64,000 nt of DNA, from the NCBI GenBank assembly GCA_949296775.1, contig CASFQA010000005.1, forward strand, positions 3,320-67,319, read 5' to 3'. Source of the DNA: an uncultured bacterium. Its GTDB lineage: Bacteria; Bacillota_I; Bacilli_A; RFN20; CAG-826. The notes under the pieces were generated by a model. The model did no database searches, was not told the origin of the DNA, and saw nothing but the letters and a program-made list of their open reading frames with translations. Positions 19,383 to 25,591 of the stretch are shown here, in pieces. Both the position numbers and the translations under genes were made by a program. Every line of letters starts with the position of its first letter. The stretch's first letter is position 1.

Positions 19383-20159
19383 ATTCAAAATATAGGCCCT
19401 TAGGAATATTAATCAATAAGCACCTGTACAGCAGTCGCCCTCTCAGCGCTCAATTTGGGCAAGCGCAAAAGCAAGGGTCGCTGTCCACCAGGGCCACCGG
19501 AAAGATCTTCCGGGAGTCATCAAGCCAGCCGAAGACGAAGATGGCTACGACGATCGAGCCATCACTGACTTTGAAAAACAATGGGAGGCCGACGTTGGAT
19601 TAATGTTAAAGGTGAATGTGATTCCTCTCGCGATCTGCCGGTGGGTGACACCGATTTGGACCACCCCCTTTGTTCGAAGGTGAACCGCCGATAGGGTTGT
19701 ATTACCACGTCTACTGTCCCTTCGTTTCTTGGTAGGAAACGGGGACATTTTTGTTTTGAACCAACTGATAGTAACGGGCTTTGGTCGAATACCTAACGGC
19801 GATGGCTTTCGAAAAAGGCTGAAAAAAGCCACGCTTATAATCGGGGACTTTCCGAAAATAACAAAATCGTTCCATCGATTCGCTTTCATATAAAGATTAA
19901 AGATGGGAAATAGCCAACCGGACGATCCTTCCGCTCAAGATCATTCCATGCAACAGGTTAAAATCAATTCCCCATGGCCGTTCCTGAATGGCAATTATTC
20001 AACGGCAGCATGCACCGCCAGTATATTTTGTGTAAAAGCACCTGTACCAAGCGTCTGTTTTTGCAGGCTTCAGCCGTCTAATCCTGAATAGATTGTTGAA
20101 ATTCTACCGATTATTACTGGAAATTGTGGTTTATGAATGAATAAGGATATGGATTTATA

Positions 20160-20441
20160 ATGCCGGCAAAACTAGCGTCTGATATAGAAACCGCGGGTTT
20201 CCTTTTCGAAGCCTTATGCGAACACGACCTTCGAATCTACGCCGAATCATTCGGTGGCAAGTTGTTACATTGCCAGGATTACAACCGAAACGAAATTGAC
20301 GCGGTAATAGAAATGCCGAGTGGGGAATGGACGGCCATCGAAATCAAACTTGGGGCTAAGCGAATCGACAAAGCGGCGGCCAATCTTCTCCGAATCAACG
20401 ATTTCTTCATCGAAAAAGGCTGCCCCCGCCTGCCAAATTAG
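20160..20441 (+). pseudogene. C-terminal remnant of a DUF4143 AAA+ ATPase
   Basis: NRNEIDAVIEMPSGEWTAIEIKLGAKRID matches the C-terminal nuclease-like motif of the intact DUF4143 ATPase at 20776-22092. No ATPase N-terminus is present. Confidence 0.5.
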
Positions 20442-20581
20442 TTGTGCTGTCTGGTCTAAGTTCCGCGGCTTACCGCCGAAAAGACGGGGTCTATGTCATC
20501 CCGCTTACGGCCTTAAGAAACTAGGCGACGCAGGACGAAAAATATAGCAAACCGGGTCGGTTTGAGTATAATACGCGTTGC

Positions 20582-20658
20582 CGGGACGTAGCACAGCTTG
20601 GTAGTGCACTACCTTGGGGTGGTAGGGGTCACGGGTTCGAATCCCGTCGTTCCGACCA
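20582..20658 (+). tRNA. tRNA-Pro (anticodon GGG)
   Basis: Hand-folded cloverleaf: acceptor CGGGACG/CGTTCCG, D-arm GCAC/GTGC, anticodon loop TTGGGGT, T-loop TTCGAAT, encoded CCA. Confidence 0.85.
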
Positions 20659-20671
20659 GTTCGATAGATAA

Positions 20672-20699
20672 AGCGCTCGCAGAACGGGCGCTTTTTTCT
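20672..20699 (+). terminator. Putative terminator after tRNA-Pro
   Basis: GC hairpin (AGCGC...GCGCT) followed by TTTTTTCTT. Confidence 0.4.
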
Positions 20700-20775
20700 T
20701 GTTTTGCCCTACTAATCAAAACAGCCAAAAGGCTCGAACCTTCGAACCCAGGAAATAGTGAAAAGGCCGCAAAAC

Positions 20776-22092
20776 CTATATGAACATGACCATATAGATC
20801 GGAGCGGTCAATATATTGTCCGCAAAATCCAGCCGATTGGCGTTTTGCAGCACCATTCCCTGACCTAACCGATAATTGCCATTTGGATCAACAAGCTTCG
20901 GCAACGCCCGGTACTCATACCCCATTCGACCGGATTTAACCTCGATTGGCAAAATCGAAAGCGAGTCATAATCATTGACCAGATAATCGACTTCCCCCAC
21001 CTTCTTCGAATCGAAGTAAAACAATTGGTGACCATGGGCAATGAGTTCCTGGGCCACCACCGTCTCATAGACCGAGCCAAGGTTTATCGCCGGGACGTCG
21101 TTAAGAAAAGGCTTAACGTTGTAGTTGAACAGCAGATAAGTCAGGATTCCGACGTCATTGTAATAAAGCTTCATTAAATCCTTCGCGCTCGATTCGCCAA
21201 GAGGAAACCGCGGATCGGAAACGGCTTTGACTGATAAGGCACACCCGGAATCGACCAAATAATCGATCTCATCCTCGTATTTGATCAGGCTGGCCCGCAC
21301 ATCGCCTTCGATTTGCTTCGCCCTAATCCGTTTAACTTTATTCTGAGTATAGGAAAGCAAAGAGTCGTATATCCGGCGTGTCTTTAAGGAATGAGTTTGA
21401 TCATAGCGAGACATATCACCCTTATACGATTCATAAATGGATGATTGGATTTCCCGCGTTTTGTAAACATCGCCTTCTTCCAAAAAGGCCTTGACCGCCT
21501 CCGGCAGACCACCGCAAAGTAGGTATTCCTTGAAAGCCTTAAAAAAGAATTCGTGGGCCGATTGGTTAATTGGTTTCTTTTCGACAAAACTCTGCCGTAA
21601 GGAATCGATGCTTTCTTGCCCCGCCCCACGGGCCCAGAGGAACTCCTCAAAATCCATCGGCCGCATCGAAAGGGACCGGACACTACCCGTTGGAATGAAA
21701 GAAGACCGCATCGCGACCCCAAGTTGCGAACCGGAGCAAATATAATGGAAACGCCGATCAGCCTTCAATGGCTTGAGCATGGAAATAAGGTGAGGATAGA
21801 CCTGGATTTCGTCGAGAAAGATTATTGTGTCTTCGTAAGAACCTAAACTCGCCCCATACAAGGCTGAAACTCGAAGATAAAAATCTCGCATGCCATTAAC
21901 CACTGCAAAATTTTTGCCGCCATCAAAATCGTCCTGCAAGTTAATTTCGACATAATGGGGATATATCGACTTGGCAACATTCCGGCAAATGAAGGACTTT
22001 CCAATTTGCCGCGCTCCATTGACTAAGAGAATGGGCGCATCAGGATCTTTTAATTTTTTTTCGATTAGTTCTGATATTTTTCTTCGATACAT
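20776..22092 (-). CDS. AAA+ ATPase with a C-terminal DUF4143 domain
   Basis: Walker A GARQIGKSF and Walker B IIFLDE. C-terminal EVDYLV...PIEVKSGR motif characteristic of the DUF4143 family. ATG at 22090-22092. Confidence 0.8.
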   Translation of the reverse strand: MYRRKISELIEKKLKDPDAPILLVNGARQIGKSFICRNVAKSIYPHYVEINLQDDFDGGKNFAVVNGMRDFYLRVSALYGASLGSYEDTIIFLDEIQVYPHLISMLKPLKADRRFHYICSGSQLGVAMRSSFIPTGSVRSLSMRPMDFEEFLWARGAGQESIDSLRQSFVEKKPINQSAHEFFFKAFKEYLLCGGLPEAVKAFLEEGDVYKTREIQSSIYESYKGDMSRYDQTHSLKTRRIYDSLLSYTQNKVKRIRAKQIEGDVRASLIKYEDEIDYLVDSGCALSVKAVSDPRFPLGESSAKDLMKLYYNDVGILTYLLFNYNVKPFLNDVPAINLGSVYETVVAQELIAHGHQLFYFDSKKVGEVDYLVNDYDSLSILPIEVKSGRMGYEYRALPKLVDPNGNYRLGQGMVLQNANRLDFADNILTAPIYMVMFI

Positions 22093-22126
22093 GGTATTTG
22101 CCCATAGGAATTATATAGGGTATTTT

Positions 22127-22212
22127 TGTAGTTTTCCAATGTTTTAGGAGACAAAAAAGCGTAGTTTTCCAATGTTTTAGGAGACAAAAAAGCGTAGTTT
22201 TCCAAAATTGTG
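22127..22212. repeat. Tandem direct repeat, 33-bp unit about 2.5 copies
   Basis: GTAGTTTTCCAATGTTTTAGGAGACAAAAAAGC occurs twice in full, followed by a partial third copy. It lies in the upstream region of the DUF4143 ATPase gene. Confidence 0.85.
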
Positions 22213-22235
22213 TCTATAAAGCCTAATTCGCTATC

Positions 22236-22480
22236 AGGATCTCGTCGGCCAAGTCGAGGCACCGCTCGACCAAGCCAGGCTCAATCGTAAAAAACGATTC
22301 GAATCGGCGAAACCGTCACGAATATAAACGCTGTTGAAAAATAGGATAGGGAATAATCCGATGAAACGGGATCGTGGCCAAAGGTAATATCACTCACCCT
22401 GTTTCCAAAGTAATTGGGCGGCAGTCTCCCGGATTCAACTCAAAGTCATTATCCATCGGAAAGAATAACCCAAAACAGAT
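22236..22480 (-). pseudogene. Decayed C-terminal fragment of a paralog of the 23887-24420 lipoprotein gene
   Basis: Minus-strand frames give MDNDFELNPGDCRPITLETG*, then ...SLSYFSTAFIF..., then IEPGLVERCLDLADEILIAN*. These match FPDDFPTSECGIYQITLG, SQRYFSIEP and IEPELVAQCFDLADRIVSESNQSI* of the intact protein. The DNA is also similar (22270-22330 versus 23920-23985). Confidence 0.6.
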
Positions 22481-22494
22481 CTTGAAAAAGAAAC

Positions 22495-23826
22495 TCAATA
22501 TCTGTGGACTTCCTTGTCAAACGCTTTCTTCCCATCTACAAAGGAAAGATTAGGATGCCTTTTTAGATACCGATCGAGTGCTGGATCTCGAACGTAACGA
22601 GCAAACTTTTCAGACACGAATTCCCGAAGACGGATATAAAAGCTAGGGTTGTCTCTTTTTGCTCTCAAAGCAATATAGGCCGAAAATTTGATGATCTCCC
22701 CGGTCAAATAGCACTCTGCGGGGTTTGGCCCTCCGACAGCGGCCTTTTCAATGGCACAAGGCCCTCCGCAATAAGTTTTGTAAAGACAATCCGGACACTC
22801 GCGAGCTTGCTCATCCAGTCTCACGCCGGCATCGGCAAGAACGCCGGGCTCTATAATGGTTCCGAGCAACCCAATAGAGGGGGAGCAAGGATAGACAAAG
22901 CCATCTAAATCAAAGGCGAAACGAGTGATGCCGCCGTCACAACGGTTAATTGTCTTCTTGTTGCCGAAAAACCGGCACAAAAATCTGCCAAACCAATCGT
23001 CTCCATTCATTAAACGCAAAAATCTAGAATCATCTCCAGCCAAAGCATCATGAAGCAAGGCGCGAGATAATCGTTCGTATTCAATCGCCCATGCGTGGGC
23101 GTGTTCCAAATCAAGACGAAAACCATCGCCGCGGACATAACGGTAGCTTAGGGTTTTAAAGATTTTCCCGAGTTCATCAATACTTTCCAGTAAAGGAAAC
23201 GAATCGTTTCCGATAGTCGCCGCGCAACCAATGTAATCCCTGCTAGCAATGGACATCACATTATCCAATATAGTTTTATAAGTGCCTTTGCCGCGATATC
23301 GATCATTTATTACTTCGTTCCCGTCAAGCGATACTCCGAACAATATTTCATGATCTTGAAGCAACTTAGCAATCTTAGGGGTCAGCAACGTGCCATTGCA
23401 AACAAATTGAGGCAAAACCTCGGTCATTATGCGATTGCTGATTTCATGACAGTAATCAGCTAGCGGGAGAATGACATCCAGATTTAACAAAGGCTCACCG
23501 ATTCCTGACAAATCAACGAAATATTTCTGACCGTCCGGAAAAAGAGAAAAGAGGTTATCCAAAATATCCTTAGCCTGCTCAAGGCTCATCCTCCGTCCAG
23601 ACTTGTTCTTGTTAAAACAGTACGAACAACGGAGATTGCATCGGTCAGAAACCGCCAAGCAAAAAGTATAAGCGGTCCTGGGGACAAACTGCGCAATCTG
23701 GGTTAAATCAACAGCAGGAGGAGCGGACGGAAAAAGGCTTGGGTTAAGCGAAAATGCGCGCGAATCTTCATCAATATACAAGTTATCCTGCAGTACCGTA
23801 AAACTTTGTACCATTGCGTATTTCAC
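22495..23826 (-). CDS. Radical SAM enzyme with a C-terminal SPASM domain (peptide/protein-modifying maturase, anSME-like)
   Basis: CNLRCSYC radical-SAM cluster motif. SAM-binding GIGEPLLN. SPASM CxxCx5Cx3C (ECPDCLYKTYCGGPC). About 60 aa precede the cluster motif. Start is either GTG at 23826 or ATG at 23814. Confidence 0.8.
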   Translation of the reverse strand: MKYAMVQSFTVLQDNLYIDEDSRAFSLNPSLFPSAPPAVDLTQIAQFVPRTAYTFCLAVSDRCNLRCSYCFNKNKSGRRMSLEQAKDILDNLFSLFPDGQKYFVDLSGIGEPLLNLDVILPLADYCHEISNRIMTEVLPQFVCNGTLLTPKIAKLLQDHEILFGVSLDGNEVINDRYRGKGTYKTILDNVMSIASRDYIGCAATIGNDSFPLLESIDELGKIFKTLSYRYVRGDGFRLDLEHAHAWAIEYERLSRALLHDALAGDDSRFLRLMNGDDWFGRFLCRFFGNKKTINRCDGGITRFAFDLDGFVYPCSPSIGLLGTIIEPGVLADAGVRLDEQARECPDCLYKTYCGGPCAIEKAAVGGPNPAECYLTGEIIKFSAYIALRAKRDNPSFYIRLREFVSEKFARYVRDPALDRYLKRHPNLSFVDGKKAFDKEVHRY

Positions 23827-23886
23827 TCGCTATAATGCCAGATAGAGAGAATCCATAAAAAGAAAAGAAACCCTAGGCCCCAAAAA

Positions 23887-24420
23887 TTAAATTGATTGAT
23901 TAGATTCAGAGACAATTCTATCGGCTAAGTCGAAGCACTGAGCAACTAGTTCAGGCTCAATAGAAAAATATCGTTGTGAAACGTAAAGCTCATCAGATAA
24001 AACGCGAATCCACCTTGGCAAAAACAATTCCATAAACGGCGGATCTGACCCGAATGCGTGACCAAGCGTGATTTGGTAAATTCCGCATTCAGAGGTAGGA
24101 AAATCATCAGGAAATTGTTCGGGCGCATCAGGATAGCACTTATCGCAAACATTAACTGGGGTGGCCTTTTCGAGTATGTCGATAAAAGGAAGCGAGTCAT
24201 CTCCGAAAACAATTGGTTTCGAATCAAAGGTTAATGAATAGCCTTTCCGAAGAGAAACGCTGCTTAAAACGCTGAAATAAGAAGAGTTCTCGCAGGCGGC
24301 TTTACGCGTGTGATAAGCCAAGAGGCTGCACGAGGATAAGTCGACCGCAGCGAGAACAAAAATCCCGAAAACACAACGAAACAGCCCGTTTGCAAATCTT
24401 TTAGCAAAGCCCGAAAACAT
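23887..24420 (-). CDS. Cysteine-containing putative lipoprotein (candidate rSAM substrate or partner)
   Basis: Signal peptide with an LSSC lipobox, and cysteines including CDKCYPDAPEQ...SECG. Ends 60 nt upstream of the rSAM gene and overlaps the preceding gene, consistent with an operon. Confidence 0.55.
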   Translation of the reverse strand: MFSGFAKRFANGLFRCVFGIFVLAAVDLSSCSLLAYHTRKAACENSSYFSVLSSVSLRKGYSLTFDSKPIVFGDDSLPFIDILEKATPVNVCDKCYPDAPEQFPDDFPTSECGIYQITLGHAFGSDPPFMELFLPRWIRVLSDELYVSQRYFSIEPELVAQCFDLADRIVSESNQSI

Positions 24421-25501
24421 AATCGCTGAAAAGCTCCGTCACCTTGGCTCGAACGTTTACTGGTTTCTTGTCCTCGCTCGAAGGATAAGTTTTATTTCCG
24501 TTCAACAAGTAATACTTGGCCACATCGGTTCCGTTTGAATAAGAAGACGATTCCTTCCAAACGCCATTGTTATAAGTCAAGCCAAGCATGTCCCCTACTT
24601 CGCAGAGGAACTTTTGCTTATTCGACCCACTCCAAGAGGAATTTGATTTTGAAAGTACCGCATCAACAAAATGGTTTTTTCGGAAAGTATCATTGAGATT
24701 ATGGTAATAGTTTTCCACCGCTGTCGAAACATGCTTATCGGATGGCAAAAAATCTCTGGCAATAATCATTCCGTCGATATCGGCCAAAACATCTTCCTGG
24801 GAACATTGCCCAAAAACTGACATAAACTTGCCAAAGTTGTTCATGCCAAGAACAGTTGAATATTGATCTATGCGAATCGAATTCACCGCCGTTTGCAAAT
24901 CCCCGGCCCAAGAAGCTAAATCCATGACATATTCATCACCCAAGGGTACGGAAGGGGACACAAAACCAATATCCAAGGTATTTTCATAAGCAGCATCCAT
25001 AACGGCGAACATATGGATCAAATCTATGCCGCGGTAGGACTTAACAGGATCTTTAAAACACAAACTTTGCCAAGAAGAACCTCTAGGATGACTAAAATTA
25101 TCGCCACGATGGGCTGAGCCACCCCATTTGCCGCCATCGACAAACTGCGAAAAATAATAACCTGATTGGTTAAAGGCGTCGACGGTCGATGAGACCAAGA
25201 AAATGTTAGGATCATATCCGGCTACATACGCCCAAAGGGCGGCCTTATCAAGTCCGTTGCCGGTGTAGCCGATATAATCCTCATTGAAGCTTCGCAAATA
25301 CATCATAGTGATATTCGGTTCAGCCGAAGACATAAATTGAGCGACTTCAATGCAATAAGCCTTAGCAAAAGGCTCAACAAATTCGATATGGCTAACCAAC
25401 TCGGAAACAGTCGTCGACGAGAAAGAAGTCGACGAAGTAGTTGCCGTTATATTAGTTAATGCTGACAAGGCAACAGGAACAACAGATATAAACGATCCCA
25501 T
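24401..25501 (-). CDS. Hypothetical exported protein (366 aa), first gene of the rSAM operon
   Basis: N-terminal hydrophobic segment and a GGAGG RBS. No recognisable enzymatic motif and no sulfatase C/S-x-P-x-R motif. Confidence 0.55.
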   Translation of the reverse strand: MGSFISVVPVALSALTNITATTSSTSFSSTTVSELVSHIEFVEPFAKAYCIEVAQFMSSAEPNITMMYLRSFNEDYIGYTGNGLDKAALWAYVAGYDPNIFLVSSTVDAFNQSGYYFSQFVDGGKWGGSAHRGDNFSHPRGSSWQSLCFKDPVKSYRGIDLIHMFAVMDAAYENTLDIGFVSPSVPLGDEYVMDLASWAGDLQTAVNSIRIDQYSTVLGMNNFGKFMSVFGQCSQEDVLADIDGMIIARDFLPSDKHVSTAVENYYHNLNDTFRKNHFVDAVLSKSNSSWSGSNKQKFLCEVGDMLGLTYNNGVWKESSSYSNGTDVAKYYLLNGNKTYPSSEDKKPVNVRAKVTELFSDYVFGLC

Positions 25502-25591
25502 ATGGCGCCTCCAAAATTAATATAGACCTTTTCCCGAATGAGTAAAGAAAAGCCCGTCGCGATGGACGGGCTAGACATTCAGCGAAGGAGG

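Follow-up and report, generated by a model that had tools for sequence, protein, structure and literature searches.

We analysed a stretch of 64,000 nucleotides (the window, whose own positions are used throughout) from contig CASFQA010000005.1 of an uncultured bacterium (GTDB lineage Bacilli_A; RFN20; CAG-826). On its minus strand, a radical S-adenosylmethionine (rSAM) enzyme with a SPASM domain is encoded behind two genes, one for a 366-aa protein (p366) assigned to the YkzU family and one for a 177-aa lipoprotein (p177). By comparing this cluster with about 140 related loci, namely 87 loci with homologs of the rSAM enzyme and 55 metagenome loci with YkzU genes, we arrived, with modest confidence, at the view that the enzyme is a dedicated maturase acting on the terminal cysteine of p366, the last residue of a hydrophobic-x-x-Cys-COOH tail, and that p366 and p177 together make up the module it serves. 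An earlier reading made from the DNA letters without database searches (the sequence-only reading) had proposed a dedicated rSAM/SPASM protein maturase operon with a co-encoded substrate. The maturase part of that proposal stood, but the choice of p177 as substrate is probably wrong. p366 ends in ...SDYVFGLC-COOH, and its gene is the only real gene of the window that ends with a cysteine codon.

We called genes in the 87 fetched rSAM loci and added the window, giving 88 loci. A recurrent layout was observed, in which a gene of 200-900 codons (X, p366 in the window) precedes a gene of about 170-230 codons that encodes a lipoprotein (Y, here p177), often with overlapping stop and start codons. 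Nearly all of the larger proteins had cysteine as their last residue. These X-Y pairs sit upstream, downstream or on both sides of the rSAM gene. Cys was the last residue in 62 of the 298 genes that had 150 or more codons, ran on the rSAM strand and lay no further than 2.5 kb from the rSAM gene; elsewhere in the loci the count was 14 of 483 (Fisher p = 4e-16). Seventy distinct Cys-ending proteins were collected near the rSAM homologs, most of them with an N-terminal signal peptide, and their last four positions followed a consensus of L, W, F or I, then P, S or M, then any residue, then Cys-COOH. Since the stop codon after the terminal Cys was TAA or TAG in 63 of 73 cases, these are true protein ends under genetic code 11 or 4. 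Read-through of TGA or an artefact of gene overlap was ruled out as the origin of the terminal Cys by these stops and by the presence of tails both with and without overlap. The Cys-tailed proteins come from unrelated families, including YkzU (PF27189), Peptidase_C39_2-like proteins, the NF045837 putative cysteine peptidase, PPC-domain proteins (to which p525, a 525-aa protein of the window, belongs) and a lipoprotein alpha-amylase, while several had no match. Iterated hidden Markov model (HMM) searches with p177, p366 and p525 as queries within the fetched loci linked few loci and left the diverse X and Y proteins unconnected; we linked them by their shared end features instead. The alpha-amylase, a 918-aa protein ending in ...SIDC, was found 1.5-2.5 kb from the rSAM gene in two loci (L011, 3701-6457; L013, 2771-5527; L numbers are our labels for the compared loci), and is a possible Cys-tailed substrate whose enzyme family is well known.

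The YkzU family offered a comparison of tailed and untailed members. PF27189 was given to p366 and its homologs by precomputed annotation, and a profile built from p366 relatives recovered 542 representatives among 1.84 billion proteins. R70, Y76, D160, H163, D169, D201, D237 and D241 are invariant in the YkzU domain. Only 17 of the 149 best of these representatives have a Cys at the C-terminus, which makes the tail an addition to some members and not something typical of the family. An rSAM gene adjoins 14 of the 17 Cys-tailed YkzU genes that have at least 2.5 kb of downstream sequence, and two of the other three keep an rSAM remnant of about 70 codons. In the 55 fetched loci, no untailed YkzU gene has an rSAM gene within 8 kb. 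Counted per lineage and with an earlier set included, rSAM adjacency was found for 8 of 8 Cys-tailed and 0 of 13 untailed YkzU lineages (p = 5e-6). The untailed genes still precede a partner of about 165-200 codons with a signal peptide or lipobox and a C-terminal motif of the p177 type, indicating that the X-Y pair is the older unit and that the presence or absence of the rSAM gene tracks the Cys tail and not the lipoprotein. This suggests that the X-Y module, a putative exported YkzU enzyme with a membrane-anchored lipoprotein, is ancestral and that the maturase was added to it. In L096 (2681-2899) and L104 (9551-9772), only the first 70 or so rSAM codons are left beside an intact Cys-tailed YkzU gene from another species, L098 and L107 carry truncated rSAM copies and L103 has no trace of the gene. 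The enzyme thus seems to have been lost repeatedly.

The type of tail also follows the enzyme. A neighbour-joining tree of the enzymes grouped the loci by tail (LM-x-C, WP-x-C, CFCEYC, LP-x-C and S-[RK]-C), and the tail of the clade that contains the window's enzyme is F/L-x-L/I-C. This last clade spans unrelated proteins, since YkzU proteins end in FGLC, FSLC or FDLC, a PPC-domain protein in LGLC and a 492-aa protein in LAYC. The correlation also holds within YkzU, where the enzyme beside a gene with a VKPSC tail has its nearest relatives next to LPGC and LPNC tails, and the enzymes beside genes with VLTLC tails have theirs next to LGLC and FSLC tails. A tail type that follows the enzyme clade is what direct recognition of the tail predicts. 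Separately, we observed a divergent rSAM clade in eight loci (L053, L062, L064, L068, L072, L075, L081 and L087; about 31-35% identity), in which the rSAM gene closes a longer operon with ATP-binding cassette (ABC) transporter-like genes. In five of these eight (L062, L068, L072, L081 and L087), a protein of 218-260 aa ending in P-x-Cys is encoded 4.2-5.3 kb upstream, at or near the operon head, and the tails in this clade read VLPIC, VLPAC, VLPKC, VFPKC and VDPTC.

The rSAM enzyme itself carries the features that the sequence-only reading had listed. From its GTG start codon it measures 443 aa, whereas gene calls on sister contigs use an ATG four codons later (23814) and give 439 aa. The CX3CX2C motif CNLRCSYC (C63, C67 and C70; 23617-23640) was confirmed and lies in a region matched by PF04055 in our Pfam scan of the enzyme (E = 4e-12), as was the SPASM CX2CX5CX3C motif CPDCLYKTYCGGPC (C344, C347, C353 and C357; 22756-22797). 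With C296, C314 and C372, the latter completes a seven-cysteine SPASM signature (CX9-15GX4C...CX2CX5CX3C...C) that aligns one-to-one with that of CteB. These ten cysteines and G309 are invariant in 27 homologs. The extra sequence of about 60 aa noted before the first cluster motif amounts to some 55-62 residues forming a short beta-hairpin domain, and a helical extension of roughly 70 aa closes the protein. The AlphaFold2 (AF2) model of the enzyme is confident (predicted local distance difference test, pLDDT, 92) and matches rSAM folds. Its family profile matched CteB (PDB 5WGG) with E = 1e-43 and the anaerobic sulfatase-maturating enzyme (anSME) with 5e-18, and Foldseek ranked CteB first (E = 5e-18, compared with 3.5e-13 for anSME).

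A check against curated SPASM subfamilies, which the sequence-only reading had advised, placed the enzyme below every cut-off. The NCBIfam model of the ranthipeptide maturase PapB (NF047865) was the best match for the window enzyme and for the 26 other members tested (best E among the 27, 9.6e-55), but the window enzyme reached 126.4 bits against a cut-off of 340. Scores were lower for the SCIFF maturase model (TIGR03974; 78.1 against 425 bits), for QhpD (TIGR03906; 75.2 against 453 bits, N-terminal half only), for anSME (TIGR03942; 58.8 against 349 bits, covering only residues 58-192 in the N-terminal half) and for MftC (49.7 bits). No qhpA or qhpC neighbours of the rSAM gene were seen, and no sulfatase motif C/S-x-P-x-R was found in p366, p177 or p525; the earlier statement that this is not a classical anSME-sulfatase pair was thus upheld. 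The family comprises about 180 homologs, nearly all from metagenome-assembled Bacilli of the gut or rumen and often in several copies per genome, and identity to the window enzyme did not exceed 46% among the best 80 rSAM matches of a scan of species-representative genomes. The elongation factor EF-G encoded in the window belongs to a cluster at 90% identity whose only named members are 'Mollicutes bacterium' and 'Candidatus Enteromonas/Alloenteromonas', which makes the host an uncultured gut member of the Bacilli of the RF39 type. On these profile and fold comparisons, the enzyme is assigned to a distinct, uncurated family in the thioether-forming branch of SPASM maturases, and not to anSME.

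The genes of p366, p177 and the enzyme were confirmed as the three-gene minus-strand operon described previously (Table 1). The first two overlap by 20 nt, 60 nt separate p177 from the rSAM gene, and the end of p366 lies 575 nt upstream of the latter. A strong hairpin with a T-run closes the upstream pyruvate:ferredoxin oxidoreductase (PFOR) gene and a promoter-like site, found by consensus scan, precedes p366, so the three genes look like a transcription unit of their own. Given the overlap of stop and start, translation of p177 is probably coupled to that of p366. Inside the 60-nt gap, a weak hairpin with a T-run (23881-23867, minus strand) resembles a terminator and could reduce expression of the rSAM enzyme relative to p366 and p177.

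We propose the following course of events. The enzyme would bind the p366 tail in the cytoplasm, before export. Having seven rather than eight auxiliary-cluster cysteines, it should possess one open iron site, as does CteB, in whose structure (5WGG) the substrate Cys reportedly ligates the auxiliary cluster at this site; the thiolate of the tail Cys would probably ligate the open site of the first auxiliary cluster in the same manner. Chemistry of the 5'-deoxyadenosyl radical would then modify the terminal Cys. The likeliest product would be a thioether to a nearby carbon, closing a small C-terminal ring, and the thioether is the default product of this branch of the superfamily. Oxidative decarboxylation, which MftC and LanD carry out on C-terminal residues, or oxidation of the Cys would be less likely products, and a link to a backbone alpha-carbon may also form. 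Finally, the modified p366 would be exported, with the lipoprotein serving as an immunity, inhibitor or tether partner. PapB is reported to form cross-links at carbons adjacent to carboxylates, including the C-terminal residue of a peptide (PMC12373016), which provides a chemical precedent for a reaction directed to the C-terminus and a reason why a free carboxylate would matter.

Comparison with known systems indicates where the novelty may lie. CteB (the SCIFF maturase) and PapB share the rSAM core and the seven-cysteine SPASM domain with the window enzyme, are its best structural and profile matches, and both form thioethers from a substrate Cys. The window enzyme nevertheless falls far under the cut-offs of these families. 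It has a hairpin of about 55 aa at its N-terminus, where CteB has some 95 more residues that we take to be its RRE (RiPP recognition element) domain, and, unlike CteB, it carries the additional helical C-terminal extension. Its genomic partners are full-length exported proteins that end in a single Cys, whereas PapB and SCIFF maturases act on short precursors. As proposed here, anSME with its sulfatase and QhpD with QhpC modify Cys in a real protein, not in a ribosomally synthesised and post-translationally modified peptide (RiPP), and do so in the cytoplasm before export. Their targets, however, are internal (C/S-x-P-x-R for anSME and Cys-Asp/Glu pairs in one dedicated subunit for QhpD), unlike the C-terminal residue that marks many unrelated families here, and both models score low. 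MftC, acting on the C-terminal Tyr of MftA, and LanD/EpiD, which decarboxylate a C-terminal Cys, need the last residue and its free carboxylate; chemistry with the same need would explain why the Cys here is terminal. Yet MftC scores poorly, the LanD enzymes are flavoproteins, and both act on short peptides, unlike proteins of the p366 type. To our knowledge, the substrates known for radical SAM/SPASM maturases are almost exclusively short peptides (RiPPs), apart from two protein cases, sulfatases and QhpC. Neither the full-text literature nor the curated families that we searched describe a pairing of a radical SAM enzyme with Cys-terminated proteins, and our comparison suggests a SPASM maturase with a co-encoded substrate that bears a new sort of substrate mark.

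The logic parallels that of the LPXTG/sortase and PEP-CTERM/exosortase systems, where a short C-terminal tag on unrelated exported proteins co-occurs with one enzyme and tag variants follow enzyme clades, as here. In contrast to those tags, the present one consists of 3-4 residues, the last being Cys, and lacks both a transmembrane (TM) helix and a basic tail; its enzyme belongs to the cytoplasmic Fe-S radical enzymes and is no membrane transpeptidase. Co-evolution thus seems to link one rSAM family to a C-terminal Cys tag of 3-4 residues on full-length exported enzymes from at least five unrelated families. More tentatively, and with slightly less than even confidence, we suggest a general post-translational system of uncultured gut Bacilli, in which a hydrophobic-x-x-Cys-COOH tag could be placed on any exported enzyme and its last residue modified by the rSAM enzyme. 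Its carriers would be RF39, Acholeplasmatales, Erysipelotrichales and relatives. If this is true, proteins would be modified at the C-terminus in a new way, for example by ring closure through a thioether or by decarboxylation to a reactive end, and secreted hydrolases or toxins could thereby be stabilised, activated or anchored. The system would also supply a minimal transferable tag for enzymatic modification of protein C-termini and a functional handle on the secreted enzyme-lipoprotein pairs of RF39-type gut bacteria, which have never been cultured. The prediction of a C-terminal modification is clear and can be checked cheaply by mass spectrometry.

Several points weigh against a modified terminal Cys. 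The evidence is comparative throughout; it speaks to the class of the enzyme, its genomic association and its specificity, and only through these to the proposed substrate, chemistry and role. The tail logo shows no conserved acceptor residue ahead of the terminal Cys, so the product is not predictable; a conserved acidic acceptor, as in PapB substrates, was rejected on the same logo. A Cys-ending gene within 4 kb is lacking in 29 of the 88 loci, many of which are cut by contig ends, and several of which have a Cys-ending gene at 4.2-5.3 kb that heads a longer operon. Many tailed loci are near-identical, and the number of independent lineages is modest. Co-inheritance as a cassette could alone produce the correlation between clade and tail, and it contributes to that pattern in any case. 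As for p366, its AF2 model, computed from a seven-sequence alignment, is of low confidence (pLDDT 37.7), and its N-terminus is hydrophobic without a basic n-region. The ORF of the 366-aa protein that the sequence-only reading had called exported is real, while its export is likely but not certain. A similar uncharged hydrophobic start (M-x-x-L-L-x-L-x-x-A-x-L-S-A-L...), replacing the K/R-rich signal peptide, was observed in p366 and in many Cys-tail proteins (L003, L005, L008, L009, L012, L013, L015, L045 and L046) as well as in some untailed YkzU proteins, and could be a lineage-specific export signal.

The alternative that survives best is that the enzyme acts on p366-type proteins without modifying their terminal Cys. 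In one version the Cys would serve for docking, as a ligand of the auxiliary cluster, and the modification would fall on another residue; in the other the Cys would act after export, for example in a disulfide to the lipoprotein or another partner, and merely co-evolve with the enzyme. The association data are the same for this explanation, the ligation reported in the 5WGG study of CteB fits docking, and the tails hold no conserved acceptor. We nevertheless consider it unlikely, because the unrelated X families share only the tail, which makes another common modification site hard to place, and because the exactly terminal position suggests chemistry that uses the thiol together with the free carboxylate.

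Less probable again is that the enzyme in fact works on a small molecule or on a small peptide missed by annotation, with the X-Y pair as co-regulated or co-transferred cargo. Most characterised relatives (PapB, CteB, CcpM and nif11-type enzymes) do act on short peptides, and the sequence-only reading had raised a missed short ORF as a possible substrate. We found no support for it: among ORFs of 12-70 codons lying up to 500 nt from the rSAM gene, none recurred across clades, neither as a short Cys-rich precursor of the PapB/SCIFF type nor otherwise, and these ORFs formed no family outside near-identical loci. In addition, the p177-rSAM gap is only 60 nt long, and this explanation leaves the strict link between tail and rSAM gene within YkzU unaccounted for.

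The p177 family was the substrate favoured previously, to be modified at the cysteines of CDKC...SECG. The description of p177 was accurate, with a signal peptide (basic n-region and hydrophobic core) and lipobox L-S-S-C31 read directly from the sequence, CDKC at residues 92-95 and SECG at 110-113. The gene lies directly upstream of the rSAM gene with the relic of a paralog downstream, a lipoprotein gene adjoins the rSAM gene in most loci, and CDxC is common to p177 and its closest relative (L003). However, the partner lipoproteins of YkzU genes align as one divergent family that keeps an RYY-x-ID...D-x-A motif at the C-terminus and whose only conserved cysteine is that of the lipobox, and the CDKC...SECG segment occurs only in the window and in that closest relative. 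Partners of the same type also follow untailed YkzU genes that have no rSAM gene within 8 kb, and in some loci X is followed directly by the rSAM gene with no lipoprotein between. Moreover, the p177 family proper is very narrow (3 clusters). With the terminal Cys of the larger protein tracking the rSAM gene instead, we regard p177 as a most improbable substrate. It is best seen as the cognate partner of p366, possibly an immunity, inhibitor or tether protein; we read it as a partner because of the overlapping stop and start codons, the covariation of partner type with enzyme type and the fusion of YkzU domains to cell-surface modules in other proteins. Local Pfam and NCBIfam scans of p177, p366 and the partner lipoproteins gave no match, and profiles of the YkzU and partner-lipoprotein families found nothing significant among PDB sequences. 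Finally, an anSME-type enzyme making formylglycine for a sulfatase encoded elsewhere is hardly credible, since, despite a SPASM fold that resembles anSME in Foldseek, the TIGR03942 score is low and confined to the N-terminal half, CteB and PapB are much closer relatives, and none of p366, p177 and p525 has the sulfatase motif.

Downstream of the rSAM gene, the sequence-only reading had described a frameshifted C-terminal fragment of a p177 paralog, in which three frames together match the last 75 aa of p177. The relic is real, but only about 22 aa of it are significant. Positions 22300-22235 encode ESFFTIEPGLVERCLDLADEIL, with 55% identity to p177 residues 149-170 and a score of 30.4 bits, compared with 19.6 bits for the best of 200 shuffled queries, and the local DNA alignment lies about 7 standard deviations above shuffles. 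Pieces in other frames (ITFGHDP, 22397-22368) are collinear with p177 and rightly spaced, yet none of them on its own outscores shuffles, which makes about 22 aa of the relic certain and about 60 aa plausible. The relic preserves the very stretch of p177 that holds the conserved C-terminal motif, and it is kept in sister strains. It is the remnant of a second X-Y cassette on the downstream side of the rSAM gene, which fits the intact X-Y/rSAM/X-Y layouts present in L022, L025 and L076.

The cassette was correctly placed in a variable island with a tRNA-Pro gene. The island has a G+C content of about 42-48%, compared with 55-61% across most of the surrounding window, and its features are listed in Table 1.

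Table 1. Features of the rSAM cassette and of the surrounding island, in positions of the window
Feature	Position	Strand	Basis or remark
p366 (X), 366 aa	24401-25501	minus	open reading frame (ORF) list; YkzU (PF27189) by precomputed annotation
p366 tail V-F-G-L-C	24404-24418	minus	Cys codon TGC 24404-24406; stop TAA 24401-24403
p177 (Y), 177-aa lipoprotein	23887-24420	minus	ORF list
Radical SAM/SPASM enzyme, 443 aa	22495-23826	minus	ORF list, motifs, profiles, AF2 model
Relic of second Y (p177-like) gene C-terminus	22235-22300	minus	alignment to p177
Terminator-like hairpin of PFOR gene	25572-25551	minus	consensus scans only
Promoter-like site before p366	25546-25519	minus	consensus scans only
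Low-GC variable island	about 15900-25550	none	GC profile, annotation
AAA_14/DUF4143 ATPase gene	start 22092	minus	in island
tRNA-Pro(GGG)	20582-20658		inside low-GC island
93-aa ORF, C-terminal fragment of DUF4143 ATPase	20160-20441	plus	beside tRNA-Pro
Extracytoplasmic function (ECF)-type sigma factor	18846-19388	minus	in island
p525, 525 aa, PPC-like domain	17115-18692	minus	in island
p182, 182-aa two-TM membrane protein	16556-17104	minus	in island, after p525
Second sigma copy, split into two ORFs	about 15922-16410

The sigma factor, p525 and the 182-aa protein form a second module of the same island. In L010, a homolog of p525 begins 6 nt past the rSAM gene and ends in ...FLGLC, whereas the window's p525 ends about seven residues earlier, without Cys. 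The 93-aa DUF4143 fragment was probably left behind by an earlier insertion at the tRNA gene. We also observed a perfect 33-bp tandem duplication (GTAGTTTTCCAATGTTTTAGGAGACAAAAAAGC, two copies, 22128-22193) a short way upstream of the AAA_14/DUF4143 ATPase gene, where it overlaps a promoter-like site at 22139-22110.

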